From: a bacterium
Lineage (GTDB): Bacteria; Bacillota_I; Bacilli_A; RF39; UBA660
Assembly (NCBI GenBank): GCA_030524925.1
Contig: JAUNFS010000002.1
Span: forward strand, 2,202 to 66,201
Direction: 5' to 3'
Length of the DNA: 64,000 bases
The notes under the pieces were generated by a model. That model saw only the letters and a list, made by a program, of their open reading frames with translations, had not been told where the DNA came from and made no database searches. Shown here in pieces: positions 13,926 to 63,696 of the stretch; position 1 is the first letter of the stretch; each line of letters opens with the position of its first letter. The position numbers and the translations under genes were made by a program.

Positions 13926-15617
13926 ATGGATGAGAAAACAATTAATATTAATAAAAGAAAAATATATGTAACTTTACTAATAGTAGTTATTTGTTTAATA
14001 GGTGTATCTTATGCATTTTTTACACTATATTTAAGACAAAGTGAAAAAAATACTATTACATCTCTTAGCTGCTTTAGTACAACATTTACTGAAGAAACAA
14101 ATGCTATAACACTAGAAAAAACTTATGCAGTAACAGAGGATGAAGGAATGAGTTATAGTCCATTTACTTTTAAAATAAAAAATAACTGTACTGATACGAT
14201 ATATGCTTATATAACGATTGATAGTTTAAATGAAGGAACATCTACTAATTTAGATAGTTCTCATGTAAGATATAATTTAAGTACTAAAGGAACTACTGAT
14301 GGAACTAGTGCAACACTTAAACCATCAAGTACTAAAAAATTAGAAAATGGTCACAATGGCTATGTAATTAAAACTTTAGCATTAAGTAGTAACGAGGAAT
14401 TAGAATATGATTTAAGATTATGGGTAGATGAAAAGACTACTGCTTCTGAAGGTTTAAGTAAAACTTGGAGTGGACAGGTTGTTGTAGTTAGTGATGCTGA
14501 AGAGCCAAATATAGATTGGAATTATACTGGTCAAGGGACGCTTTTAGCAGCAATTAAAAATGGCAATACTGTGAGTGACCCTTTGACTGTTCCTGGATCT
14601 GCAGCATCAACTTCTACTGAGGCAGTTTTAGCAAGTACACAAGATGATTATGGAACATCATATTACTTTAGAGGAGCAGTGGAAAACAATTATGTAGAGT
14701 ATGCTAATATGTGTTGGAGAATTGTTAGAGTAACCGGCGATGGTTCTATAAAGGTAGTTTTATATAATTACAATGGATTGACTACTACAAACAATACTCC
14801 ATCAAGTAGTACGCCATGTAATGTAACAGGTAATGATTTAGCTTTTGCAAGATATGAGGGTGATACTTATACTTCTAAATTTAATTCAAGTTATACTGGT
14901 AATGCTTATGTAGGATTTATGTATGGTGCTTCTGGTGCTAGTTATGCAAAAGCACATGCTAATACTAATGCAAGTACAATATTAACTAATCTAAATAAAT
15001 GGTATACAAATGTACTTTCTAAGCAAGCAAATTTTAAGGACAGTCAGCTTGCAGATACAATATGGTGTAATGATAAGCGTGTAGTAACTGATGCTACGTT
15101 TAATCCTCGTAATTTGACTTTGGGAACAAATTATGGTTATGCAAGGAATGCAAATTATTATAGCGCCACTAAAAGACTAGTACAAGCATCTTCATTGAGC
15201 GCTGGTGGTACGGGGCCTACTTTAATATGTCCAAATGATAACAATGATGGAAAGTTATCTAAGTTTACTGTAAGTGACACAACTTATGGCAATGGAGCAT
15301 TAAGTAGCTATGCAAAAGTAGGGTTGCTTACTGCAGATGAAATAGCATTTGCTGGTGGAGCTGTTTATACAAAATCAACATATTATATAAAGGGTAATGT
15401 TAATTCAAGTGATTGGTGGGCTTTGTCTCCGAGCGGTTACCTTGGCGTCGGCGCTTTCGTTTGGGTTGTTGTTGGTGCTGGCGGCGGCCTCATTGAACGT
15501 GGATTTGTTGACGACGGCTACGGCGTGCGCCCCTCTCTATCGCTTCAGTCGGGAGTCAAAATATCAAGTAGTGGGATTGGCAGTGCTACTAATCCTTATA
15601 AAGTTGTAATGGAGTAA
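13926..15617 (+). CDS. membrane-anchored Ser/Thr/Asn-rich surface protein, paralog family member A
   Basis: N-terminal signal-anchor helix. Shares motifs with ORF 49437-50927: NxCW[RK][IM]VR.T, AYVG[FY]MYG, and a C-terminal W.LSP…G[VA]RP[SA][LI][ST]L…DPY module. Contains an anomalous GC-rich segment at 15419-15570. Confidence 0.55.
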   Translation: MDEKTININKRKIYVTLLIVVICLIGVSYAFFTLYLRQSEKNTITSLSCFSTTFTEETNAITLEKTYAVTEDEGMSYSPFTFKIKNNCTDTIYAYITIDSLNEGTSTNLDSSHVRYNLSTKGTTDGTSATLKPSSTKKLENGHNGYVIKTLALSSNEELEYDLRLWVDEKTTASEGLSKTWSGQVVVVSDAEEPNIDWNYTGQGTLLAAIKNGNTVSDPLTVPGSAASTSTEAVLASTQDDYGTSYYFRGAVENNYVEYANMCWRIVRVTGDGSIKVVLYNYNGLTTTNNTPSSSTPCNVTGNDLAFARYEGDTYTSKFNSSYTGNAYVGFMYGASGASYAKAHANTNASTILTNLNKWYTNVLSKQANFKDSQLADTIWCNDKRVVTDATFNPRNLTLGTNYGYARNANYYSATKRLVQASSLSAGGTGPTLICPNDNNDGKLSKFTVSDTTYGNGALSSYAKVGLLTADEIAFAGGAVYTKSTYYIKGNVNSSDWWALSPSGYLGVGAFVWVVVGAGGGLIERGFVDDGYGVRPSLSLQSGVKISSSGIGSATNPYKVVME

Positions 15618-33253: not shown

Positions 33254-33502
33254 AATAATTCTCCTTTTTAAAACACATAAAAACCTAGAAAATAGTCTTA
33301 GTGATAAATTCCCGCGCACTCGCAAGGTGGGCATCACATAGAAGGCTTTAGGAGTCTAGATTAAATCTAGCTTTCTACACCACCTCTAATTAGATTCCCA
33401 ATATTCACCATTGACGGATTTATATTTAACCATCTTCTAGGTACTTTAATTATATCATAGATTTTTAATTTGTTAGCAAAAATCACATAATTTTACATTT
33501 TT

Positions 33503-33992: not shown

Positions 33993-35759
33993 TTAGTTGC
34001 TTGCCTTATGTTCATATAAATACACATTTTTTGATGCAGTTAGACAAACATTGTAATATAAAAGTTTTTCAAGATCTAATTCTATACCCATTATTTGATT
34101 GATTATTGGTGCTTCTAGAAGTCTATTGTTATCTTTGATAATTATTGTGTAGTCTGCTTGTTCTTCTTTGCATCTTCTTGCTAGAATAAATTTAATATTT
34201 AGATCTTTACGATTTTTATAAATTATATTTTGACTATTTATTTCGTAGTTTTCATTTAATAATTTTATATCACCAGGATATCTGATTGCTAATAGAACTG
34301 TACTATTTTCTGGTAAGGTATTAAGTGTTTCATCAATATTAGAAATAATTTCTTCTTTTATTTCACTATTTTGTTCTGGAGATACTTTTCTAACGTTGTT
34401 ATCTAGTAAGTACTTAGGGTTTGAACCGTTAGTTTGGTAAATGCATTCTTCTACTTTACCTATGAGTGTATATGATGCATTACAATGATTTATTAGTTCT
34501 TTAATAAAATTATAATTATTTGTTGTTAAGTTCATAGCCTCATCCACAATGATATATTTGTAATTATAGTCTTGTTCTTTTATTAGATAAATGGCTTTAT
34601 TTATTAGATTATTTATTTCATTATCTTTGATATTTGCTAGATAATCATTATAAATTGGTGATACTAGTTCAATTAGTTTCTTATTTTGAAGACTAGTATT
34701 AAATGTTTCAAGCGTTTGATTAGATGAAATTAACTGAGTGATAATTATTTGGTATAATTCTACTATACTATCAATAACGTTTGAATTTTTAGAAAGAATA
34801 TCATTCCATAATTCATTTGCTTGTCTTGGATTAAATGCTACTTGATGAGTCTTTAGATTGTTATATAAATTTGTAAGCAATTTTCCTTCTAGTTTTTCTT
34901 TTGCATAACAGATTATATCATTGTTTTCTTCACTTTGATTTAATAGATATTTAATAGTGATATTATAGTCTGGTAGATTAAATTTGTCATCTTCGTATTT
35001 GTAGTTTATTTGGTTTTCGTATAAGAAGTTAGCGATGTCTACTTCATCAAAGTTATGCACTAGTTCATTATTAAAAGTTAATGGCTTATTAAGTTTGTAA
35101 TAATTATCTTTTTCTTCGTCACTAGTAAATTCTAAATCATTTTTTCTTTTGAAGTGATAATGTATTAGATATTTACATAGTTTTGAAAGATAAGTATCTT
35201 CTTTTAATAGAGAGTTTAGTTTATCTTTAATAAAGCCTTCTACGTTGGTGTTTTGAATTTTAATATTTTCATTAGTATCTTTATTGATAAGTTCTAAGAC
35301 TAAATTATTTATAGTACTTATCTTTATTTCGTTAGTAGGATTTATTTGATTATTTAATTCTTTAACATCTTTATTTGTATATGGTATTATTAAAATCTCT
35401 TTACGGTTAATATTTTTTTCTAGAAGTTTAGTAACTTTTTCTTTGATTATTTCTAGTTTGTTTGAGTGAATTCCAGCATATATTATTTCATTTTGAACAG
35501 TGCTATCTTTAATGTTTTGGTTGTGAGAATTAATCTTGATTTCAGCTTCTTCTAAATTTTGACGAATTGTTTTGCAAAGTTCCTGAAGTTCAGTAGATTT
35601 TGTTTTTTCATTGTCATTTAGGAAACTAGTTGCAAGATTTAGATAAGTGTCTTTGATGTTTTCGGGAATTACTTTGTTAGGGTTTTTAAAAAAGTCATTA
35701 TAGTTTTCTATAAGACTTTGTGCTACTAATATCATTTCTTTTAGATCATTTTCATTCAT
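33993..35759 (-). CDS. UvrD/PcrA-like SF1 helicase homolog with degenerate Walker A (probably ATPase-inactive)
   Basis: Motif Ia-like ILIIPYTNKDVKEL, motif II IIVDEAMNL, motif III-like IGKVEECIYQTNGSNP, and a C-terminal KFILARRCKEEQADYTIII. The expected Walker A AGAGSGKT is replaced by AGIHSNKL. Confidence 0.5.
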   Translation of the reverse strand: MNENDLKEMILVAQSLIENYNDFFKNPNKVIPENIKDTYLNLATSFLNDNEKTKSTELQELCKTIRQNLEEAEIKINSHNQNIKDSTVQNEIIYAGIHSNKLEIIKEKVTKLLEKNINRKEILIIPYTNKDVKELNNQINPTNEIKISTINNLVLELINKDTNENIKIQNTNVEGFIKDKLNSLLKEDTYLSKLCKYLIHYHFKRKNDLEFTSDEEKDNYYKLNKPLTFNNELVHNFDEVDIANFLYENQINYKYEDDKFNLPDYNITIKYLLNQSEENNDIICYAKEKLEGKLLTNLYNNLKTHQVAFNPRQANELWNDILSKNSNVIDSIVELYQIIITQLISSNQTLETFNTSLQNKKLIELVSPIYNDYLANIKDNEINNLINKAIYLIKEQDYNYKYIIVDEAMNLTTNNYNFIKELINHCNASYTLIGKVEECIYQTNGSNPKYLLDNNVRKVSPEQNSEIKEEIISNIDETLNTLPENSTVLLAIRYPGDIKLLNENYEINSQNIIYKNRKDLNIKFILARRCKEEQADYTIIIKDNNRLLEAPIINQIMGIELDLEKLLYYNVCLTASKNVYLYEHKASN

Positions 35760-35762
35760 GTA

Positions 35763-37532
35763 TTAGTTTGTTCCTTTCCATCTAGCGTAGACATTACAGT
35801 TACTTGAGTATGGTAATGGGTTTGGAAGATCCATTTTAATTAATAAAGGTATTTTAAAAGCGTTACCGAATGATACAAGGGTGCCTGATTGTAACGAGTT
35901 TAATTTTTCAATGATGTCACTTGATACATTTGGAAGCATTTTTTCAATATATTCTAAGTCTTTTGGATGGGTCATTTTTAGAACTAAGAAGTTACTCATC
36001 TGAGCTACAACTGTTTCTGAGATGTCTACTGGTCTTTGAGATATTAAATCTATTAAGACACCATATTTACGACCTTCTTTAGCGATACGTTCAAAGATAT
36101 TATAACCTAGTAAGAATTTATCGTTGTCTGCTACTACATATCTGTGGGCTTCTTCTATAATTAGATGAAATGGAATTGATGCTCTTACTTTACGTGATTT
36201 AGAAAAGTCAAAGACCATTTTACTAACTATTTTTACAATTACTTTTGCTAGGTTGTCATCTATATCTTCTAGGTTGATGTTAATTATTTGACTTCTTTTA
36301 TGATTTAGAACTATTAAGCTTGAGATATATTGTTCTAGGGTTATGTACTGATTAATTTCAAAGAATAATGCGTTACGACTATTAATGATTGAGTGAAGTC
36401 TAACTTTTAAGATGATTGCTGAATCTTGCATTTGTCTATTAGTTAAGAATCCTTCACCAATTAGGGTAAATTCTAGGGCTTTTTCTAGATCTTTTAGTGT
36501 GAAAAATGCGTTTGTTGGAACTTCAATAGAACTTTCTAGTTCTTCGTTTAGATTTTTAGCGATGTATTCATTAATTAGAACGCTTTCACCAAACTCACCT
36601 TTATTATCTATTTTAAAACATTCACTAAATCTTCTTGTATAACCGATTCCTTGAATTTCCGTGTTCATACTGAATGCTGGAGTTGAACATGATGAGATAA
36701 TTGTGAAGATGTCATTTTTCTTACCACTTGCGTTTTGGTTACTGAATAAAACTGATTGAATAGCTTTAGCAATTAAGTGGTTTTTTAGTTTTTCAGTATC
36801 AGCATCATTTTTACTAAATAGCTTTGCTAGTTTCATCATTCTTTCAATAATTGTTAACTGTGAGTGGTTTTCAGCATTTAATAAAAGTGCGATATCATCG
36901 TTTGTAAATAAGAATATTGGTAATCTAAATAAGACGTCAGTTTCATCAGTTGGATTGGTTGTTAAAAATTTGTACTGATATACGTCACTTATTTGGTTAA
37001 TGTCTTTAAAAGCATTTTTATATTCACCGTAGGCATCAAATATAAATAAATTGGCATTAGCGGCTTTAAAGTTTTGGTTTAGGAAAATATTTTGGACAAT
37101 TCTTGATACTGAACATGATTTACCTGAACCAGAGTTACCAAAGATAGCTAAGTGGTTTGAAAATAAGTCATTGATGTTTGCGTAGATGTTTCTATCTTTG
37201 TAGATTGGACTTTTGCCAATATAGATTGATTCTTCGTCATTTTTGCCCATGATGATGTCTAATTCTTCATCGTTAATAACTCTTAGGGAACTTGTTAGTG
37301 TAGGTTTTTTGATGGTACCTGCGATAAATCTAGTACCGGTAAATTCACCCAAAAGTTCAATTTTCATGGTATTTTCGTCGACATTTTTAACTTCGCCTAA
37401 TAGTTTGTCACCATTTGATTCAAAGACTACATGAAGATTCATTAAGTTACTTATGACATTGCCTTCTTTATTAATTTCTACTATGGCAGTATTATCACTA
37501 ATATATTTTATTTTTCCAAACATGTTAACCAA
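35763..37532 (-). CDS. HerA-like (DUF87) ATPase
   Basis: N-terminal HAS-barrel-like region. Walker A FGNSGSGKS and Walker B HLIIEEAHRY are characteristic of HerA/FtsK-superfamily DUF87 ATPases. 3-bp gap to the downstream gene. Confidence 0.65.
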   Translation of the reverse strand: MVNMFGKIKYISDNTAIVEINKEGNVISNLMNLHVVFESNGDKLLGEVKNVDENTMKIELLGEFTGTRFIAGTIKKPTLTSSLRVINDEELDIIMGKNDEESIYIGKSPIYKDRNIYANINDLFSNHLAIFGNSGSGKSCSVSRIVQNIFLNQNFKAANANLFIFDAYGEYKNAFKDINQISDVYQYKFLTTNPTDETDVLFRLPIFLFTNDDIALLLNAENHSQLTIIERMMKLAKLFSKNDADTEKLKNHLIAKAIQSVLFSNQNASGKKNDIFTIISSCSTPAFSMNTEIQGIGYTRRFSECFKIDNKGEFGESVLINEYIAKNLNEELESSIEVPTNAFFTLKDLEKALEFTLIGEGFLTNRQMQDSAIILKVRLHSIINSRNALFFEINQYITLEQYISSLIVLNHKRSQIININLEDIDDNLAKVIVKIVSKMVFDFSKSRKVRASIPFHLIIEEAHRYVVADNDKFLLGYNIFERIAKEGRKYGVLIDLISQRPVDISETVVAQMSNFLVLKMTHPKDLEYIEKMLPNVSSDIIEKLNSLQSGTLVSFGNAFKIPLLIKMDLPNPLPYSSNCNVYARWKGTN

Positions 37533-37594
37533 CCTCTTTACTATAAATAAAGTATATCACATAAAAAAAAGATAATCTAGAGTACTACTTTAAA

Positions 37595-38581
37595 TTATCC
37601 GATTTTATAATAATTTTTTATGATTGTACTAAGTGAGTTTATGAGCATTCTGAAGTTAAATTCAAGAACTGTACTTGAATAGGTTTCTATTTGTTCGGGG
37701 TTGATGTTTCCTTTTGCTAAATAGTTTGCGGCAATTGTTAAAATTGGTGTAGTTTGGTTATTATTTTTTTCAGTATCTAATATTTCTCTTGCTGATGTGT
37801 AGTAGGAAAAGTCTGATGCGGTCAGAGTATTAATTGCTAACTTAAATAAGTCTAGTTCTTTTTCTTCTATACCATCAGTTATGATACCTCTATTATATAG
37901 ATCTATTATTTTACTTGCTAAGATTTCAATTATGTTAAATGAGGCGATTCTAGCTGATGTATGTGACTTTAATAAGTCTTCTATGGAACTGGTGTAGTAT
38001 GCTGAGTATTTTGGAAATAGAGCTTTGATTTTGTCATAGTGTCTTTGAGATACGGATACATTATCTAGTCTTCTTTTATCATTGATATCAAGAGAGATAA
38101 TATTTTTTAATGTATTTTTGATACTATCCATAATAGTAGCTATTTCTCTTGTTAGTTCATCAATTTGATTTAATTTTGATCCAGTTACTCGCTCGTTGTG
38201 CTGATAAATACTGTTTTTAGAGTTATAGTTTTGAGCTGCTATATACCCTTCTTTTGCAAGTGAAGTGATTTTTGTGTAAGTGTCTGGATCTAAATAATTG
38301 CTGTCTTTTGTTAGAACTTTTAACTGCTCTATGATAAGCTCGCATTTAGTTTTTTGAAGACGTTGTTTAACTTTTGATGATTCTATTATTCTATTTGCAT
38401 CGTCAACGCTATTTTGTAAATTTATTAAAGTTGTTCTTTTTTCAAAATATATAGATAAAAGATTGGCTAGTTTAACATACTCTTCTTCTACTGGTAGTGG
38501 TAAGCAATCGTTACAAACATTAATAAAGCCTTGAATTATATTATCTGTATATGAATTTAGCTTGGTAACATTTACTTTCAT
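37595..38581 (-). CDS. hypothetical alpha-helical protein, first gene of the HerA operon
   Basis: 329 aa from the ATG with AAGAAGGTA RBS. The ORF track extends to a 38614 start that lacks an RBS. No recognisable catalytic motif. Confidence 0.4.
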   Translation of the reverse strand: MKVNVTKLNSYTDNIIQGFINVCNDCLPLPVEEEYVKLANLLSIYFEKRTTLINLQNSVDDANRIIESSKVKQRLQKTKCELIIEQLKVLTKDSNYLDPDTYTKITSLAKEGYIAAQNYNSKNSIYQHNERVTGSKLNQIDELTREIATIMDSIKNTLKNIISLDINDKRRLDNVSVSQRHYDKIKALFPKYSAYYTSSIEDLLKSHTSARIASFNIIEILASKIIDLYNRGIITDGIEEKELDLFKLAINTLTASDFSYYTSAREILDTEKNNNQTTPILTIAANYLAKGNINPEQIETYSSTVLEFNFRMLINSLSTIIKNYYKIG

Positions 38582-38604
38582 GATATCACTTACCTTCTTT
38601 ATTA

Positions 38605-38633
38605 ATCTTATCACAATAGAATAACTTCTTCAA
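38605..38633 (-). promoter_or_regulatory. candidate promoter of the three-gene HerA operon
   Basis: On the minus strand: TTGAAG, 17-nt spacer, TAAGAT. Confidence 0.3.
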
Positions 38634-49436: not shown

Positions 49437-50927
49437 TTAATCGGGGAGCGCAACTGTGTATGGATCTTCAATTTCACCAGTTCCTCCTGTTATTAGGATA
49501 TTTTGTTTTAAGGTTATAGCTGGACGGGCTCCATAATCAGTAATCGTTAGGATAGCGGATAGTTCACCATAGCGCTGACCTCGAATGCCAGCATCGTCGT
49601 AGGAGTAGCGGTAAGGGGACATCAACCAATATTTACCATTATTATTTAAATAATTAGTACTTGAACCATAAAAGGCAAGTTTTGCTTCTTTAGTAGTTAA
49701 TAAACCCACAGGATAGTCTAAAGCATTATTTCCATATCCTAAAGTTCCTCCAGAATCTACTTTCAATGTAAATTGATCTTCCTTATCTTGACAGGTTAAT
49801 CTTAAATTTTTTTCATCAAAATCATTAAAGTGTAAATCTGTTGTTATACTTCCGCCACTTGGGTTCCATGCGCTTGCAGATAAATTTGTTATGTATCTAT
49901 TATTACAATATATTGCATTTTCTAAATAATTCGTTATATTTGTCATATTTGAACTATACCAGTTATCTATTACTTTTTTTATATTACTATTTGTTGTATT
50001 GTAATTTAACATTTCGTCTATGGCATTTTCTATTTTTTTACCATTCTTTAGTGTTATATAATATGCATATTCTACGCTACCACCCGGCAAAGTGCCCACA
50101 TAACTTATATAATATACAGTTGAACACCTTGTACTTGTACTTAAACATGTATAATGTTTATTTCTTAGTTTACTATTTATATTTGCTACTGCTACACTTT
50201 CTGCATTACTTAATGTATATGTTGTTCCATTCCATGTTACATTACTTCCATAATAATATTTTCCAAATGATGATACTATTTTTTCAGAAGTTGCATACAC
50301 AGTTCCATACATATATCCTACATACGCTAGAGACCCATTTCTATTTGAATTATATCTTGTTCCACTTGCTTCCAAATAAACATCTGTTCCTGTGTTATTG
50401 CATTTTGTATCTTCTTTATATAATCCATTATAAATAAGCTTTACTCCATCTGTTTCTGTTGTTCTTACCATTTTCCAACAATAATTATTTAATACTAAAT
50501 TATTATTTGTTATATTACCTGCATAATAATATACATCTTTACCATTTTCATCTGTTGTTTTTTGTACTCCATTATTTTTAGCATAGTCAGCTAGAACTTT
50601 ATCGTATACTGTTGAGCTCTTGGTGAAATCAACATTACATTTTGTTTTATTTTGAGTGATACTAGTTACGTTAAATACCCATTTACTTCCGTTCCATACG
50701 GCTGTGCCACTTCCTTTTGAACAGGTAACTACTCCAATATAGCTGGATGTAGTGGGAAACTTATCTGATTCTTTACCGTCTATGGTTATTGCCAAAAGTG
50801 CTTCTTCTTTTTCGTTCCACTTAGCATCTACTAAAGTTTCGGTTTCGTAATTTTTTAAAAATATGACACCAGTTATTACTACAAATACACTCAAAAGAAG
50901 AATGAATGATACATTTTTATTTTTCAT
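49437..50927 (-). CDS. membrane-anchored Asn/Thr/Tyr-rich surface protein, paralog family member B
   Basis: N-terminal signal anchor. Shares motifs with gene A (NYCWKMVRTT, AYVGYMYG, YWLMSP…YGARPAITL…DPYTV). GGTGG RBS. Confidence 0.55.
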   Translation of the reverse strand: MKNKNVSFILLLSVFVVITGVIFLKNYETETLVDAKWNEKEEALLAITIDGKESDKFPTTSSYIGVVTCSKGSGTAVWNGSKWVFNVTSITQNKTKCNVDFTKSSTVYDKVLADYAKNNGVQKTTDENGKDVYYYAGNITNNNLVLNNYCWKMVRTTETDGVKLIYNGLYKEDTKCNNTGTDVYLEASGTRYNSNRNGSLAYVGYMYGTVYATSEKIVSSFGKYYYGSNVTWNGTTYTLSNAESVAVANINSKLRNKHYTCLSTSTRCSTVYYISYVGTLPGGSVEYAYYITLKNGKKIENAIDEMLNYNTTNSNIKKVIDNWYSSNMTNITNYLENAIYCNNRYITNLSASAWNPSGGSITTDLHFNDFDEKNLRLTCQDKEDQFTLKVDSGGTLGYGNNALDYPVGLLTTKEAKLAFYGSSTNYLNNNGKYWLMSPYRYSYDDAGIRGQRYGELSAILTITDYGARPAITLKQNILITGGTGEIEDPYTVALPD

Positions 50928-50950
50928 TTTACCACCTATTTTCTTCTTTT

Positions 50951-50980
50951 ATTATATAACAACCCCCCCCCGTGTCAACT
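50951..50980 (-). promoter_or_regulatory. promoter of surface protein gene B with a G9 homopolymer in the -35/-10 spacer
   Basis: Minus strand reads AGTTGACA-C-GGGGGGGGG-TTGTTA-TATAAT. TTGACA and TATAAT are separated by 16 nt, of which 9 are a G run. TATAAT lies ~30 nt upstream of the RBS. Confidence 0.6.
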
Positions 50981-51128
50981 AGGGATGTGGAAAACTTGGT
51001 GGTCAGTGCGAACAATTGTGTGTAGTAAAAAACATCCTACTTTTGATTGTTTTTTAGGATGTTTGGTTATTTAGTTTCTATCTCCTACTAATTTGTCTCA
51101 TAACGAAAAACAATAGGCTTTTGTTAGT

Positions 51129-51539
51129 CTATTGTTTTAGTATTTTTTCAAGTGCTCTATATGGAAGTGTAGCACAAGTTTTACGGCTTTCTTGTTTATA
51201 GATTTCATCAAATGCTAGGGCTTCTTCTAAGCCTTCTTGATGATATGGTTTTTCGTTTACCATGTTTTCAAAGTTCTCTATATATTCTTCTGCTTCTTCA
51301 ATAGTTTTACCTATGATGTTTTTGATCATAACTGATGTTGAAGCAGTTGATATAGCACAGGCTTCTCCATCAAAGTATGCATCTTTAATTATGCCATCTT
51401 CTAGCTTTACGAATACATTTATATCATCAATACAAGATACGTTATTAGCATTTGCTTTTAGAAAGTCATTTTTGGTTTCTTTATGAAAAGGATTTGTGTA
51501 ATTTTCTAATAATATTTCTCTTTTTAGTTCTGGTTCCAT
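51129..51539 (-). CDS. sufU: SUF system Fe-S assembly scaffold (SufU/IscU-like, NifU family)
   Basis: Conserved Cys motifs (…DGEACAISTASTS…, C-terminal CATLP) and typical size. Confidence 0.8.
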   Translation of the reverse strand: MEPELKREILLENYTNPFHKETKNDFLKANANNVSCIDDINVFVKLEDGIIKDAYFDGEACAISTASTSVMIKNIIGKTIEEAEEYIENFENMVNEKPYHQEGLEEALAFDEIYKQESRKTCATLPYRALEKILKQ

Positions 51540-56580: not shown

Positions 56581-59500
56581 TTATTTTTTAAATGTACTTA
56601 AGTTTTTTTCTTGGCGAAGATGTTTTTTTATTTCGGCTTTCATATCATTAAAAATTTGCTCAAAATTAGAATTAGCGACTTGTTCTTTTTCTCTTATGAT
56701 TGAGCTTTCAATTGGTATTTGCTCACCAGTAGGTTCTGCTAAAACTATTCTTATACTTTTACCAGTAAAACCATCAAAAGCAGTTATGTTAACGATATAT
56801 TGTCTTAAAAAACTATTTAGAGCTGTTTTATCATTTAAGATTTTGGAATTTTCATAATCATTAAATGTGATAGTTACGTCCCTACTATGGTTAACTCTAA
56901 AGATAGTAAAACTTTTTAGTTCGGTAGGTATTTCCACGGTGAGATTTGAAGAATTTGAAAAATGGTTCAGAATATATAGATGATCTATTTCTTTATTTAG
57001 AATAATTTTATTTACTGCAGAAATATCCCCATTGAAGCTTGTAGGTCCATCTAATATGATTTCACTTAGTCCGTTTGGTAGTGTTATAGTGCTAGGCTTA
57101 TATTTTCTTAATTTATATATTGTGATTTGTTCCACTGGGTTATTATATGCTGGTTTCATTCTAAAAACTTTTATTCCTGGAAGAATAAACTCTTTTTCAT
57201 TTGGTACTAATGACGGAGATAATACATTATAGAAATTGTATATTTTATATAAAGATTCTCCTAACACGTCAAGCCGTTTTTCTTGTGGAACGCTATCAAT
57301 GAGTTTTAATAATGTTAACAACGGAATTTCATCACAAAAGTGTTCATCGTAAGTGATTTCTTTTAGTAATTTTGTACAATCTTGATTTTTGATTTTGATA
57401 TTTTGAAAAAGTTCAATAATTCTTTCTAGTGGATTGGGATAATTTAGTGCGTTATAGAATTCTAATAACATCTGATTATTTAGTATATCATCTTGAATGT
57501 TATTTTCATCTTTAGTAAAGAATAAACTTTTATAAGCTACCTCTAGTCTTAGTGCGTCATTATGAGTTATTGCTTTGCTTGTAAGTTTCTTTTTTAATAG
57601 TTCTTCTTGATCAATATTCCCATATGAAAGAGTTTGATTATTTGATATTTTGTTTTTCATTATTTCTTTGATGATTTCAACTGTTTGAGGTGATAAATCA
57701 TTTAATGAAGTGATACCACTTTCATAACTGGCTATTGCATAATTAAAATACTCTTCTACTATACTTTTAAATTTATTTTTATCTATTAGTCCTAGACTTA
57801 CTAAGATTTCTAATTTTTGGAGATGTTTTTTGACGTCATCTTTAGTTGTTTGATTATTTTGAGATTTTTGAAAAGACACTTTATATTCACTAATAATTGC
57901 AGAAGGCAGATTGATGCTAGATGCTTTTTTAACAATATTTTGATAAAGATCGTAAATGTCTTTTGTTTTATATGTTAGTTTTATTTTAGGATTTATTTCT
58001 ATTCCAAGTGCCTTAGCATAATTTATTAGTTTATTGTATATTTCTTTAAGTTTGCCTCTAAACATTTTATAAATTTTAAAAATATAGTCTTTGTTTGAGT
58101 AATCTATTGCTCGTTCAAGTTCTTTGCGTGGTATCTCCTTAGTATCAATAGTAAAATTTAAAACTTCAACTGGATAATTAAAGTGAAATTTTGATTGCTG
58201 AAGAAATAATGTTTCGGTCATATCACATTCTTTTAGAAGTTCTATGAAGCCTTCTTGAGTTTCAAGAACTTCACAATCAAGGTAATTATTAAATACCCAA
58301 TCATGTGGTGGGTGTGATAAACTAATTTTTTTGATTGTTGAAGGAAATTCAATGGTGTCAAATTGCATTTCTCTTGTGGAAATGAATTCTTTTAATCCTT
58401 CGTTAAATTTTAGCTTAAGGTCAAGATTTACTAGTTTATCAAATGTCACTTCATAATACATTTTGGAAAATGCATCTAGATTAATTTTATTTAAAGAGCT
58501 TGGAAATTCAATTGGTGTATTATCGTATTTTAATCTTTCTATAAATGGGTTAAAAATCTCGCTGTAGTAGATTAAAACTGGTGTATGTAATAACGTCGCA
58601 TAATCGTCACTAATATATTTGACACCGTTTGGTATTTCTCTATTAGTTTTGGTGTTTAAAATTGTTTTAAAGATTAATGAATAAAGCTGAACTAAAGCGT
58701 AAAGTTTTTGGTTGCTTTTTATAAACTGAGCAGTATTAGATTTCATAAATACTATTACCATTTCTTGTTTGGTTTCATTTTTTGGCACTTCTACTTCATT
58801 TGATAGAAAACTCATAAAAGTAGATAATGGTATTTGATCTGAAAAATCAAAGGTTTTTAAGTCGTTAATATATACATAAATATTTCTACTTTCTACTAGG
58901 TAATTATCAAAGAAACTTGTAATAAGATCCGGGGATGAAATGCTAGCTAAAAGTGCAAGTTTAAATGGTGTATTAAAAATGTCACTAGCACTAAATTCGC
59001 CACTATTATTTGTAATTATTTGTTTTAGAAGGCGAACTAGTCTCTCATATTCATTTACTCGAATAGTTCCATTATTTTCTTCTGATGTGCTTTTATAAGA
59101 GTCATAGATTTTATCTGCTGGGTCTTTTGATATTACATTAATTAGCTTGAGTAGAATGGTCTCTAAGCTTGCTTGCTCTTCTTTGAAGAATGAATCAAAT
59201 GATATTCCATTATAGTCATTACTTATTGCAAGATTACATAAGATGTTAAATTTGGTATTAAATAATTTTTCTTTTAAGTTATCTATTTTTTGATACCCTA
59301 ATTCTTCTATACCGATACATTTAGCAATTAGTTTGTCTAGTTTTTCTAGTTGTTCTTTTGGTGGAAGATTAGATGATAGAAGTTTTGTTAAATCTTCACT
59401 TATAGTGTTTGCCAGGTGACTATCGTTATATATTTCATCTTCTATTTGAACTGTGGCTTTAGCAATGCTAACTGGAGTTATTTCATTTAAGCTAATGTCA

Positions 59501-60117
59501 AACCCTTCAATAATTTTTTCGTACCTTTTTAGAGTAACTTCGTTTTCTTCTTTAGGCAGGTTTAGTGATTTTATCCTATCTTTTAAAGTGGTTATTTCTA
59601 GTAAGTTACCAGTTATGGCATTTTGCATGCTGATAATTTGGATTTCAATTTGACTTATTAAGTTCTTTATTGTATTTTTCTTATTCAGAGACATGAATGG
59701 ATTTCTTTTTAGAATATTTTCTAAAGCTGCTTTTTTAAGAAATAAGTTATTGATATGGTTTACGATAAGTGTGTGATAAAGCTTTTGTTTTTCTTCTAAA
59801 ATAGATAAATAAGTGTGTTCTTTTTTATCACTTTGATTTATGGGATCTAGAATAAAGTCTATTTCTAAGTTAATTTTTGTTAGTTTGTTTATATAGTGAT
59901 GTAAATATTTATCATCTTCTAGTTTTAAATCTAGTGATGTTAAGGTTTTATTTTGGTTAAGCTTAGCTAGATATACTCTTTCGTAAGTTTTAATTTCATT
60001 TTTATTTTCATGATAAAAATCTTCATTTGGTTTATAAATGAAGACTTTACCGGTTGTTATAAAATTGGTATTTGTATTAATTTTTTCTTTTTTAAATAGT
60101 TTACTAAATAGCCCCAT
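56581..60117 (-). CDS. giant cytoplasmic-type protein (1178 aa), tandem paralog A
   Basis: No signal peptide. Coiled-coil-rich N-terminal third. C-terminal half has beta-rich segments with possible BspA-like LRR_5 units (TIEFPSTIKKIS, ITLPNGLSEII). AAGGAGA RBS. Starts 48 bp after paralog B. Confidence 0.5.
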   Translation of the reverse strand: MGLFSKLFKKEKINTNTNFITTGKVFIYKPNEDFYHENKNEIKTYERVYLAKLNQNKTLTSLDLKLEDDKYLHHYINKLTKINLEIDFILDPINQSDKKEHTYLSILEEKQKLYHTLIVNHINNLFLKKAALENILKRNPFMSLNKKNTIKNLISQIEIQIISMQNAITGNLLEITTLKDRIKSLNLPKEENEVTLKRYEKIIEGFDISLNEITPVSIAKATVQIEDEIYNDSHLANTISEDLTKLLSSNLPPKEQLEKLDKLIAKCIGIEELGYQKIDNLKEKLFNTKFNILCNLAISNDYNGISFDSFFKEEQASLETILLKLINVISKDPADKIYDSYKSTSEENNGTIRVNEYERLVRLLKQIITNNSGEFSASDIFNTPFKLALLASISSPDLITSFFDNYLVESRNIYVYINDLKTFDFSDQIPLSTFMSFLSNEVEVPKNETKQEMVIVFMKSNTAQFIKSNQKLYALVQLYSLIFKTILNTKTNREIPNGVKYISDDYATLLHTPVLIYYSEIFNPFIERLKYDNTPIEFPSSLNKINLDAFSKMYYEVTFDKLVNLDLKLKFNEGLKEFISTREMQFDTIEFPSTIKKISLSHPPHDWVFNNYLDCEVLETQEGFIELLKECDMTETLFLQQSKFHFNYPVEVLNFTIDTKEIPRKELERAIDYSNKDYIFKIYKMFRGKLKEIYNKLINYAKALGIEINPKIKLTYKTKDIYDLYQNIVKKASSINLPSAIISEYKVSFQKSQNNQTTKDDVKKHLQKLEILVSLGLIDKNKFKSIVEEYFNYAIASYESGITSLNDLSPQTVEIIKEIMKNKISNNQTLSYGNIDQEELLKKKLTSKAITHNDALRLEVAYKSLFFTKDENNIQDDILNNQMLLEFYNALNYPNPLERIIELFQNIKIKNQDCTKLLKEITYDEHFCDEIPLLTLLKLIDSVPQEKRLDVLGESLYKIYNFYNVLSPSLVPNEKEFILPGIKVFRMKPAYNNPVEQITIYKLRKYKPSTITLPNGLSEIILDGPTSFNGDISAVNKIILNKEIDHLYILNHFSNSSNLTVEIPTELKSFTIFRVNHSRDVTITFNDYENSKILNDKTALNSFLRQYIVNITAFDGFTGKSIRIVLAEPTGEQIPIESSIIREKEQVANSNFEQIFNDMKAEIKKHLRQEKNLSTFKK
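59130..60117 (-). repeat. ~1-kb 5' segment of paralog A, near-identical to 62710-63696 in paralog B
   Basis: Long stretches are identical (for example 59920-60070 vs 63500-63650). The protein N-termini are >90% identical for ~325 aa, after which the proteins diverge. Confidence 0.75.
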
Positions 60118-60165
60118 AGTTAAGTCTCCTTTAGTAATTTTATTTTATCATAATGTATTATTATT

Positions 60166-63100
60166 TTAAAGTGATGCGCTTTTGGTATTACTTTTGTTTA
60201 AATGTTTTTTTATTTCCTCAATTAGTATTTGCTGCTGATATTTTTTATCAGGATTAAATTTGGCTTTTGCTTCTATATCTTGCCTTGTTATTACTACTGG
60301 CTCAGCGCCTTCTTGTTTTAAGACTATTTCGCTTTGAGCACTAAATTCGTTTAAAAAACTATGAGCAATACAAGAAAGTATGTGGGGCGAGTTTAAGATT
60401 TCCGAATTTTGATAGTCAATAAATTCTAAGGAAATGTTGTTGCCTGGAGCGATAATGTCGTGACTTTTTATGTTTGGTGGAATCACAATTGTGGTTTTAA
60501 ATATAGAATTTCCTGTTCGTGGCTTTGATAATGAAATAAATCCAACATCATCAGTTAAAGTAATTTTAGATATTCTTTCAAAAGGGTTTCCATTATCAAA
60601 AGAATTTTCATTTTTTAAAGCATTAAAATAGTCTAATCCAGGAAAAAATTTTATGCTTTTGGTTTTTGATTTGTTAAAAAGTTTCGCAGAATAATTATAA
60701 AGGTATTTGCAACTGTTATTAAATATGAAATCTTTTATTCCAGGAGGAATTATTTCTTCCTCGTCAACTGGTAAATATGCTTTTAATTCATTATATAAAT
60801 CTAGTAAATTTAATATAGTTTCTCCTTCAAATGGTTTTAAGTCTTTTTTAGGTACTTCGTTTAATAATTTAAGTACAGTAAGTACTGGTACTTTATTACA
60901 AAAATAGTAGCTATCGGCAATATTTCCTAAGAGTACTCTATATGCTTTTTTACTAATTGTTATAGTATTTAATGATTTAATAAAATTAGCAATAGGAGTT
61001 GGCTTTATTAGTGCACTTAAAAGTTCTAATAATATAGGTGAATAGATTACTTCAACTTTAGTTTTTGGCGATAAAGAACTTTTTAAAAAGATAATGTTAA
61101 TCTTGGATTTTATTTTCTTAACTGCATTTGGATCTATTTTTTTCGTAATTAAGCCGGTCTCTATTAGCGATTCTTGACTAGCCTCATCTAAATAATTTTT
61201 GCTGGCACTAGATAATTCTTCATCCATTGCATTTAATATGTTTTCTTTTAAAGTTGTATTAACAACACTTATAGAAAGTTCATTAATTATTTGAGTACCT
61301 CTTTCGTAATTTTTAAGTATGCTTATAATCACATTTTTTGTAACAGCTTTAAAGGTATTACTTGACATTAAGCCTAATTCATTTAGAACTTCAGCTTTTT
61401 TTAAGAGTTTTAGTTTATTATCTTTTGTTTCATTTGTATTATCTAGATTATTGCTTGATGTTATAATTTCATTTGTTAAATTACTTGCAGATTTAATAAT
61501 TTTATTATAAAGATTTTTAATATCCTCTATGCTGAATTCACTAGTTTTGCTATTTAAATCTAATGGTAGTTCTAGGATATTTGCTAGTTCAGATAATCTT
61601 TTATAAACTTCTTCTAATTTAGAATTAAACAATTTATATATTTTATCTTTTAGTTTAGTTCCAGTTTCTTTATCATAACCAATTAATTCTTCAAATTCAT
61701 GAGCATACATCGTAAAATCAAATATTGGCAAGTGATGTTTAAATTCTATGCCACAACCATATTTAATAAAATCATGCCATGGAATACCGTCAAATAGTTT
61801 CATAAATTTTTCTTTAGATGATAAAGCGTCACAATTTAGATAGTTATTAAATTCCATATTTGCTTGAAAACCACTTATTTCAGTTATTGTTGAGGGAAGC
61901 TGTACAAGACTTAGTTGGACTGGCATACTATATTTGTTTGATAAACTAATAAATTTTTTAGTTCCTTCTTGTAATTGTATAGTAAGCTGGCTTTTTATAA
62001 AGTCATAACTATAGCTTAAAAAACCTGGTAGTCTATATAGACTTATGTCAATGCTTTCTAAGGATTTAGGACAGCAAAGCGTTGGAGTATCAGGATATGT
62101 TTTAATGCAAGAATATAGTTTGGTATAAAGATAAAAGATATTAGCTGAAGAAATTTTGTCTGATGTCCTAATGTTTTTTACGCCTTCTGGCATTTGTCTA
62201 TATGTACCAGAAATTCTTATTATTCTATATAAAAGTTCATATAATTTAATAAGACTACGGAGTTTTTGGTTTTTTGAAATCTTTTCAAAACCTAACTTGA
62301 TAATGTCTTCTTCTTTTTCATCCTTGTTAAGAGTAGTAAATTTATCTAAGTTATTTGGCTCTTTAAATAGTAATTCATTTGATAAAATTTTTAGAAATGA
62401 ACTTAACGGTAAATTCTCAGTGTATTCTATATAATCATTTTTGCTAATGTAATTAAAAAGTTCACTACTTTTTACTAAATGGTTATTAAAATAACTTATT
62501 AGCTGATTTGGTTCGCTTATTCTAGCAAGAAGCGCAAGTTTAAATGGTTTATTAAAAATATCTTTTGCAGAAAAGTCGCCATTTTTATCAGTAATGATTT
62601 CTTTTAGTATTTTGATTAGATCATTATAAATAACAGAATTCATTTCACTTGCATTTTGTTTTGCAGCTTTGTCGTACGCATTATAAATTTCTTTGCTTGG
62701 GTCTTTTGATATTACATTAATTAGATTAAGAAGAATGGTTTCTAAGCTTGCCTGCTCTTCTTTGAAGAAAGAGTCAAATGATATGCCATTATAGTCATTA
62801 CTTATTGCAAGGTTACATAAGATGTTGAATTTGGCTTTAAATAATTTTTCTTTTAAGTTATCTATTTTTTGATACCCTAATTCTTCTATACCGATACATT
62901 TAGCAATTAGTTTGTCTAGTTTTGTTAATGTTTCTTTTGGTGGAAGATTAGATGATAAAAGTTTTGTTAGATCTTCACTTATAGTGTTTGCTAGATGACT
63001 ATCGTTATATATTTCGTCTTCTATTTGAACAGTTGCTTTAGCGATAGTAACTAGGGTTATTTCACTTAAGTTAATATCAAACCCTTCAATGATTTTTTTG

Positions 63101-63696
63101 TATCTGCTTAAAGTAACTTGGTTTTCCTCTTTTGGTAAATCAAGGGATGCTATCCTATCTTTTAAAGTGGTTATTTCTAGTAAATTACCAGTTATGGCAT
63201 TTTGCATGCTAATTATTTGAATCTCTATTTGGCTGATTAAATTTTTAATAGTGTTCTTTTTGTTCATAGACATGAATGGGTTTCTTTTTAAAATATTTTC
63301 TAAAGCTGATTGTTTTAGAAATAAGTTATTGATATGGTTTACGATTAAAGCATGATAAAGTTTTTGCTTTTCTTCTAAAATAGATAAATAAGTGTGTTCT
63401 TTTTTATCACTTTGATTTATGGGATCTAGAATAAAGTCTATTTCTAAGTTAATTTTTGTTAGTTTGTTTATATAGTGATGTAAATATTTATCATCTTCTA
63501 GTTTTAAATCTAGTGATGTTAAGGTTTTATTTTGGTTAAGCTTAGCTAGATATACTCTTTCGTAAGTTTTAATTTCATTTTTATTTTCATGATAAAAATC
63601 TTCATTTGGTTTATAAATGAAGACTTTACCGGTTGTTATAAAATTGGTATTTGTACTAATTTTTTCTTTTTTAAATAGTTTACTAAATAGCCCCAT
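60166..63696 (-). CDS. giant cytoplasmic-type protein (1176 aa), tandem paralog B
   Basis: Same architecture as paralog A. Lies 15 bp downstream of the lepA stop. Confidence 0.5.
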   Translation of the reverse strand: MGLFSKLFKKEKISTNTNFITTGKVFIYKPNEDFYHENKNEIKTYERVYLAKLNQNKTLTSLDLKLEDDKYLHHYINKLTKINLEIDFILDPINQSDKKEHTYLSILEEKQKLYHALIVNHINNLFLKQSALENILKRNPFMSMNKKNTIKNLISQIEIQIISMQNAITGNLLEITTLKDRIASLDLPKEENQVTLSRYKKIIEGFDINLSEITLVTIAKATVQIEDEIYNDSHLANTISEDLTKLLSSNLPPKETLTKLDKLIAKCIGIEELGYQKIDNLKEKLFKAKFNILCNLAISNDYNGISFDSFFKEEQASLETILLNLINVISKDPSKEIYNAYDKAAKQNASEMNSVIYNDLIKILKEIITDKNGDFSAKDIFNKPFKLALLARISEPNQLISYFNNHLVKSSELFNYISKNDYIEYTENLPLSSFLKILSNELLFKEPNNLDKFTTLNKDEKEEDIIKLGFEKISKNQKLRSLIKLYELLYRIIRISGTYRQMPEGVKNIRTSDKISSANIFYLYTKLYSCIKTYPDTPTLCCPKSLESIDISLYRLPGFLSYSYDFIKSQLTIQLQEGTKKFISLSNKYSMPVQLSLVQLPSTITEISGFQANMEFNNYLNCDALSSKEKFMKLFDGIPWHDFIKYGCGIEFKHHLPIFDFTMYAHEFEELIGYDKETGTKLKDKIYKLFNSKLEEVYKRLSELANILELPLDLNSKTSEFSIEDIKNLYNKIIKSASNLTNEIITSSNNLDNTNETKDNKLKLLKKAEVLNELGLMSSNTFKAVTKNVIISILKNYERGTQIINELSISVVNTTLKENILNAMDEELSSASKNYLDEASQESLIETGLITKKIDPNAVKKIKSKINIIFLKSSLSPKTKVEVIYSPILLELLSALIKPTPIANFIKSLNTITISKKAYRVLLGNIADSYYFCNKVPVLTVLKLLNEVPKKDLKPFEGETILNLLDLYNELKAYLPVDEEEIIPPGIKDFIFNNSCKYLYNYSAKLFNKSKTKSIKFFPGLDYFNALKNENSFDNGNPFERISKITLTDDVGFISLSKPRTGNSIFKTTIVIPPNIKSHDIIAPGNNISLEFIDYQNSEILNSPHILSCIAHSFLNEFSAQSEIVLKQEGAEPVVITRQDIEAKAKFNPDKKYQQQILIEEIKKHLNKSNTKSASL
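62710..63696 (-). repeat. ~1-kb 5' segment of paralog B, near-identical to 59130-60117
   Basis: See the matching repeat entry at 59130-60117. Confidence 0.75.

Follow-up and report, generated by a model that had tools for sequence, protein, structure and literature searches.

We have found that, in the 64,000-nucleotide stretch of DNA analysed here (hereafter the window), the gene of a putative surface protein of 496 aa is preceded by a promoter whose spacer contains an uninterrupted run of nine G residues, and that the length of this run differs between strains at homologous promoters. Judging from sequence, we consider it quite probable that this is a case of slipped-strand phase or volume variation in a variable surface-protein family, of the porA or tp0126 type. 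The initial annotation had proposed the tract as a phase-variation candidate, and this reading is supported: a perfect promoter has the tract in its spacer, the composition of the tract is odd, and its length is polymorphic between strains.

The promoter occupies positions 50978-50951 of the minus strand and reads TTGACA-C-G9-TTGTTA-TATAAT, with hexamers that match the sigma-70-type consensus at 12 of 12 positions and a spacer of 16 nt. The region runs, in minus-strand order, AAGTTTTCCACATCCCTAG-TTGACA-C-GGGGGGGGG-TTGTTA-TATAAT-AAAAGAAGAAAAT-AGGTGG-TAAA-ATG, and its features are as follows.

50986..50997, minus strand: upstream motif AAGTTTTCCACA, 5-7 nt from the -35 box (cassette alignment and loci L165-L170)
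50973..50978, minus strand: -35 hexamer TTGACA (consensus scan; unchanged in 13/13 aligned cassettes)
50957..50972, minus strand: whole 16-nt spacer C-G9-TTGTTA (consensus scan)
50972, minus strand: spacer base C (sequence)
50963..50971, minus strand: G9 homopolymer (C9 on the plus strand), the proposed slippage site (run counts and homologous cassettes)
50957..50962, minus strand: TTGTTA part of the spacer (unchanged among homologues)
50951..50956, minus strand: -10 hexamer TATAAT, without a TG extension (unchanged in the aligned cassettes that reach this far)
50932..50937, minus strand: ribosome-binding site AGGTGG (sequence; kept in homologues)
50927, minus strand: start codon ATG (sequence)
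49437..50927, minus strand: gene for the 496-aa protein, with a predicted N-terminal hydrophobic anchor and a putative C-terminal C-type-lectin-like or DUF6273-like domain

The promoter sequence had already been given in the initial annotation and is right in every detail, by direct reading as well as by the consensus scan. So is the arithmetic attached to it, in which G8, G9 and G10 correspond to spacers of 15, 16 and 17 nt; cassettes with G8, G10 and G11 do exist naturally. The G9 promoter is the sole 12/12 match, both in the consensus scan of the region and in that of the whole window. A scan of the whole window for strong combinations of -35 and -10 boxes, allowing 13-21 nt between them, gave 12 pairs that score at least 11/12, and the spacer is 17 nt in 6 of these 12. 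The preferred spacing in this organism looks like 17 nt, in which case a tenth G would restore it. The window also encodes a primary sigma factor (regions 1.1 to 4) together with dnaG. As for the conserved AAGTTTTCCACA motif, it could be an UP-element-like sequence, it could bind a regulator, or it could simply mark the border of the conserved cassette.

Two terminator-like hairpins, both carrying U runs, are found between the sufU stop codon and the promoter (fold z-score -3.0). Since they part the gene from the suf operon, the gene should depend on its own promoter.

51027..51064, minus strand: terminator-like hairpin with a 10-bp stem and a 15-nt loop, then a U run, upstream of the promoter (fold and pair I12)
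51102..51138, minus strand: terminator-like hairpin at the sufU stop codon (fold and pair I5)

On the upstream side lie the genes of FtsK and of the suf proteins (sufC-like ABC ATPase, SufBD, SufS and SufU, 54221-51129). The downstream neighbours are hisS, aspS/asnS and gatC-, gatA- and gatB-like genes, of which hisS has a separate promoter (TTGACA-17-TAAAAT). A phage origin of the locus was considered and rejected, as no match to phage records was found and the surrounding genes (suf, hisS, aspS, gatAB, ftsK) have housekeeping roles, which places it on the chromosome. At Rfam gathering thresholds, there is no RNA leader or riboswitch near the promoter and no T-box upstream of hisS or aspS; the sole match in the window is a 6S RNA (RF00013, 48.6 bits) at 33278-33446 on the minus strand.

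Elsewhere in the window, two gene groups on the minus strand deserve a record of their own. At 56581-63696, downstream of a lepA-like gene, there are two tandem paralogues of ~1177 aa, whose first ~340 residues are ~95% identical while the rest is far more diverged (47% identity overall); neither of them matches a Pfam or NCBIfam family, and both lack a signal peptide. At 33993-38614, genes for HerA/DUF87-type and AAA_19 ATPases and for a 339-aa protein without a family match adjoin two ABC/FtsX fusion transporters, and this run could be a module for defence or for DNA translocation.

In the 64 kb window, we have counted 12948 G/C runs of length 1, 2163 of length 2, 285 of length 3, 56 of length 4, 8 of length 5, and a single one of length 9. 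That is, each added base cuts the counts about six-fold, so that only ~0.005 runs of at least 9 are expected, against one observed. The oddity that had been claimed for a 9-nt G/C run at ~28% GC is thus confirmed, since the G9 tract is the sole run of 6 or more in a window with a GC content of 28.75%. Furthermore, in 228 kb of related low-GC loci, all G/C runs of at least 7 sit at the 5' ends of genes of the same family.

Homologous cassettes, defined as TTGACA-C-Gn-TTGTTA-TATAAT...AGGTGGTAAAATG, were gathered via exact-protein look-ups (of the neighbours SufU and HisS, and of homologues), a scan of GTDB genomes, and a pattern scan. The pattern used for metagenomes, TTGACAC-N6-14-TTGTTATATAAT, was too permissive, with 4 true cassettes out of 120 among the matches listed. 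The tracts fall into the following forms; the lengths are those of the assembly consensus, in which a one-base homopolymer error is possible for any single assembly.

G8, spacer 15 nt, n = 4: L003, L018 (= L067), L163, L166
G9, spacer 16 nt, n = 14: window, L004, L005, L038, L039, L040, L041 (whose contig begins at the first G of the tract), L071, L125, L127, L165, L167, L168, L169
G10, spacer 17 nt, n = 1: L162
G11, with an altered 3' spacer and an ambiguous -10 box, n = 1: L170
A + G8, spacer 16 nt: L037
Interrupted AGGTGGGGGC, spacer 17 nt: L035, L036, L164 (cut at contig start)

The length comparison across other isolates that had been suggested for the tract has thus revealed G8, G9, G10 and G11 in homologous cassettes, and an invariant tract was not observed. 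Among the 20 pure tracts, G9 is by far the commonest (14/20). In an alignment of 13 cassettes, one of which (L004) stops inside the -10 box, the hexamers and TTGTTA are invariant, and indels between the boxes are confined to the G tract. The most direct comparison comes from the sufU-hisS locus, of which 6.46 kb could be aligned from five strains of one species, with 100% identical HisS, in five different metagenomes. Here the pairs differ by 9-113 substitutions, and the only internal indel is that between G8 (L166) and G9 (the other four); L166 and L169 are separated by 9 substitutions and one G. At a second orthologous locus (relA-dtd-gene-DUF3792-Impact_N-uvrC), G8, G9, G10, A+G8 and interrupted forms are all found. 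The interrupted AGGTGGGGGC spacers should resist slippage and can be regarded as 'locked'. In addition, a distant family member (33-35% identical) from another uncultured Bacilli MAG has the promoter TTGAAA-ATC-G8-TATTA-TAAAAT (L031, 2459-2466), which is unrelated to the cassette, yet carries G8 within its 16-nt spacer.

Homopolymers are prone to error, and a number of contigs stop at the tract or close to it, so one may ask whether sequencing or assembly has created the tract, or its length, artificially. We regard this as very improbable, because the long-G cassette is present in independent assemblies (Logan, MEGAHIT, SPAdes, NCBI) of more than 15 samples. On the other hand, the contig ends themselves (L003, L004 and L005 end 9-14 nt past the tract) have mostly been set aside as evidence for length heterogeneity. 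The promoter cassette is multi-copy, and its repetition in the genome accounts, at least in part, for the breaks in these three contigs and in L041.

A static promoter, in which a G-rich spacer is tolerated or structurally useful and the length differences reflect slow indel evolution plus an occasional assembly error, would agree with the predominance of G9 among assemblies. It would also agree with the fact that related promoters stay G-rich even when the run is interrupted, so that G-richness itself may matter. We nevertheless consider it unlikely: the tract is the sole internal indel of the five-strain alignment, including the pair only 9 substitutions apart, and there are four tract lengths among otherwise conserved cassettes. 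Long G/C runs are absent from the rest of the 64-kb window and of the 228 kb of related loci. Moreover, frameshifted paralogues with intact ORFs, which are described below, are a hallmark of contingency loci.

Within one species, the stretch from sufU to hisS (window 49437-51080, set against L165-L171) is an island that varies between strains, while HisS is 100% identical and the flanks are ~96% identical. The window carries the 496-aa gene here; in five strains, the same promoter cassette is followed by a distant paralogue of 572 aa, and L170 carries a Fic gene and a mosaic family gene. In GCA_977038665.1 (L171), the promoter and the gene are both absent (window 51080-49516 is missing). The mosaic gene of L170 is annotated as two ORFs (270 and 429 aa) that overlap, and the break in frame, at ~1000-1028, falls at the poly-A ACAACAAAAAAAAATGG, which could be a second coding-region homopolymer switch or could mark a plain pseudogene. 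We have also observed an IS3-like end (GGGACTTTGTCAATATTTTAGACA..., with a transposase C-terminus ...YNPIRLHSSIGYFSPDEFEK) that abuts the AAGTTTTC(CACA) motif just upstream of the -35 box. Such ends are present in L002 near its 3' end and in L007 at ~1090-1321, that is, in two samples and strain backgrounds, in the same orientation and with junctions 4 nt apart. The motif could be an insertion hot-spot, or the insertion could be a second way of promoter silencing.

These observations bear on the possibility that the tract varies while expression is mainly set otherwise, by a regulator bound at AAGTTTTCCACA, by gene replacement or deletion, or by an IS upstream of the -35 box. The AAGTTTTCCACA motif is conserved in all cassettes, strains with identical HisS carry different family genes or none at the locus, and IS3-like ends sit beside the motif in two samples, all of which would suit such control. 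However, these layers are compatible with spacer-length control and offer no true alternative to it. One-base spacing changes between perfect hexamers do alter promoter strength in porA and tp0126 (PMC7864442). The distance from the motif to the -35 box is not fixed but varies over 5-7 nt, and this speaks against an activator that must bind at one set distance. We consider a promoter set mainly by these other means distinctly unlikely.

An invertible promoter of the fimS or inverton kind, or another form of recombination, with the G run being incidental, is barely conceivable. The promoter is flanked by 11-nt AT-rich arms with 91% complementarity (50873-50883 and 51021-51031, pair I10); this pair is at chance level, and 13 of its kind occur across 1.3 kb of AT-rich DNA. 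The genes next to the promoter include no recombinase, and none of more than 25 homologous contigs carries the cassette in the opposite orientation. We have accordingly rejected an inverton: its repeats are of chance level only, an adjacent recombinase is absent, and so are inverted copies among homologous contigs. Slippage in the promoter spacer remains the preferred reading, and the nature of the product and of its relatives is considered next.

A database entry, 'MAG: hypothetical protein Q4C44_00670 [bacterium]', matches the 496-aa protein at 100% identity, and relatives of the protein are encoded in MAGs from the human gut that bear the labels uncultured Bacilli or uncultured Tenericutes. 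Exact-sequence look-ups of this protein and of the paralogue P0111 returned nothing. The window protein itself has no match in Pfam or NCBIfam, and DUF6273 (PF19789) gives weak matches in 10 of 38 homologues. The N-terminus, MKNKNVSFILLLSVFVVITGVIFLK, consists of a basic stretch followed by a hydrophobic segment and is predicted to act as a signal anchor; all sequences of the family alignment share eight cysteines. An AlphaFold model built from 38 sequences has a pLDDT of 72.7 and a pTM of 0.70, and a Foldseek search of the PDB with this model gave no match. The N-terminal domain of a peptidase has been described as an enlarged C-type-lectin-like domain (PMC12237041), and the match of the window protein appears to fall on this domain. 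From the predicted N-terminal anchor and the putative lectin-like fold, we infer the label 'surface protein', and 'surface or extracellular binding protein' seems a reasonable description.

The family is large in public data, with 875 matches at E <= 1e-3 and many paralogues per genome. With its predicted signal-anchor N-terminus and its membership of a large multi-copy family, the product agrees with the putative surface protein of the initial annotation. The claim of a paralogous family holds for public data, while the window itself contains a single, distant paralogue (13926-15617, plus strand), 24-35% identical over parts. Its promoter-like site, TTGATA-17-TATAAT, contains no homopolymer.

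In the Hadza-derived MAG CAKOMS01, the poly-G of family members lies not in the promoter but inside the first codons, in the arrangement GGAGG-N8-ATGAAAAAAATAGACTTCC-Gn-TTGTGAAACTCC. At least 12 paralogues with a visible tract are found there (L011-L029), behind a highly conserved 5' cassette of ~150 nt. Two of the 12 have G9 and are in frame (500 and 506 aa), while the other ten have G10 and are frameshifted, with a stop after 26-29 codons. In all ten G10 copies the long frame past the tract is open, over 490-627 codons in nine of them and to the contig end in L028. As a sequence pattern, intact ORFs after a one-base frameshift are the classical signature of translational phase variation, as opposed to gene decay. 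In the best 120 database homologues, 4 read in frame through the tract and 62 are called only from just past it. Many CAKOMS01 contigs break at the conserved 5' ends because the cassette is multi-copy. It could be argued that the poly-G acts here as a Shine-Dalgarno-like element, with initiation at the GTG right after it, and that the genes are constitutive. Frame switching is favoured, however, by the GGAGG-ATG that is conserved upstream and by the fact that G9 puts the gene exactly in frame. For the window gene, an in-ORF (translational) switch was rejected, since the tract is 36 nt 5' of the ATG and stops surround it in all frames.

For the window gene we infer an effect on transcription, a switching rate, reversibility and surface exposure, and the proposed sequence of events is as follows. 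Slipped-strand mispairing during replication would add or remove one G in the spacer of this sigma-A/sigma-70-type promoter. The change would alter the distance and the helical phasing of the -35 and -10 boxes, giving 15 nt with G8, 16 nt with G9 and 17 nt with G10. Transcription of the putative lectin-like surface protein would then be switched or graded, stochastically and heritably. Because of established promoter biology and precedent, activity would most likely peak with G10 (17 nt), be lower but still present with G9 (16 nt, below the optimum), and be weak or off with G8 (15 nt). Actually, the system may exert volume control rather than a strict ON/OFF switch: as the hexamers are perfect, the effect may be graded, and the 16-nt spacer may already be strongly active. 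Since 14 of the 20 pure tracts are G9, the tract could also be fairly stable. As family members have a poly-G of their own, whether within the promoter spacer or early in the coding sequence, varied combinations of these proteins would be displayed across a population.

Comparable arrangements are known from several bacteria. The vlp genes of Mycoplasma hyorhinis encode a multigene set of variable surface proteins, with a poly-A in each promoter spacer and combinatorial ON/OFF expression. The present case resembles vlp in the surface-protein multigene family, in the reduced-genome, low-GC, Bacilli-related lineage, and in the homopolymer in the promoter spacer. It differs in that vlp has poly-A rather than poly-G and encodes lipoproteins with repeat regions in a wall-less organism; the window encodes an LtaS-like sulfatase-family protein, which suggests a teichoic-acid-containing cell envelope here.

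As summarised in PMC7864442, porA of N. meningitidis carries a poly-G between -35 and -10 with an optimum of 17 nt, and a one-base change away from 17 nt grades or abolishes transcription of this surface protein. The position of the poly-G between the boxes is the same here. PorA is, however, a porin from a single gene of a Gram-negative pathogen, while our case concerns uncultured low-GC gut Bacilli or 'Tenericutes', a putatively lectin-like and membrane-anchored product and many paralogues. In T. pallidum, tp0126 likewise has a poly-G between -35 and -10 and works best at 17-nt spacing, while tprE/G/J/L are paralogous putative outer-surface proteins with poly-G promoters of 7-11 nt, of which tprL shows mixtures of G8, G9 and G10 within isolates (PMC7864442). 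Poly-G promoters in a paralogous family of putative surface proteins are thus common to both. The differences are that T. pallidum is a spirochaete with unrelated protein families, that the tpr tract is placed immediately before the start of transcription and not between the two boxes, and that variation was demonstrated within isolates there, whereas lengths are compared between strains here. Coding-region poly-G contingency loci are described for Campylobacter jejuni and Neisseria (PMC6321876 and PMC3786947). The CAKOMS01 paralogues are similar to these loci, with G9 or G10 just past the start codon, in or out of frame, and with intact ORFs; the window gene is unlike them in that its tract is in the promoter and not in the reading frame.

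The mechanism is therefore a textbook one, and the instance is most likely ordinary but previously undescribed. Mutational switches are familiar from pathogens, among them Neisseria, Treponema, Campylobacter and Mycoplasma, and phase variation in gut commensals is known mostly from invertible promoters. A full-text literature search, which included RF39 phase variation and UMGS1372, gave no description of such a system. What is new is the host lineage (uncultured gut Bacilli or 'Tenericutes'), the unannotated CTLD-like family, and the use of poly-G in two functional positions within one family. Beyond the single locus, we see about an even chance that there is a lineage-wide phasome. It would comprise dozens of lectin-like paralogues, each switched by poly-G in the promoter spacer or the first codons and swapped in strain-variable islands behind a conserved ~130-nt 5' cassette, which would amount to Mycoplasma-Vlp-like combinatorial surface variation in a human gut commensal.

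Overall, this uncultured low-GC lineage of gut Bacilli appears to reserve its long G runs for one large family of putative lectin-like envelope proteins. If this is true, genes that are now called 'hypothetical' would be the variable surface coat of the lineage, and likely targets of IgA, phage and host glycan interactions. The frequent contig breaks and the apparently 'frameshifted' genes in MAGs of this lineage would then be explained as well, and the ON/OFF states across people would be readable straight from existing metagenomes.
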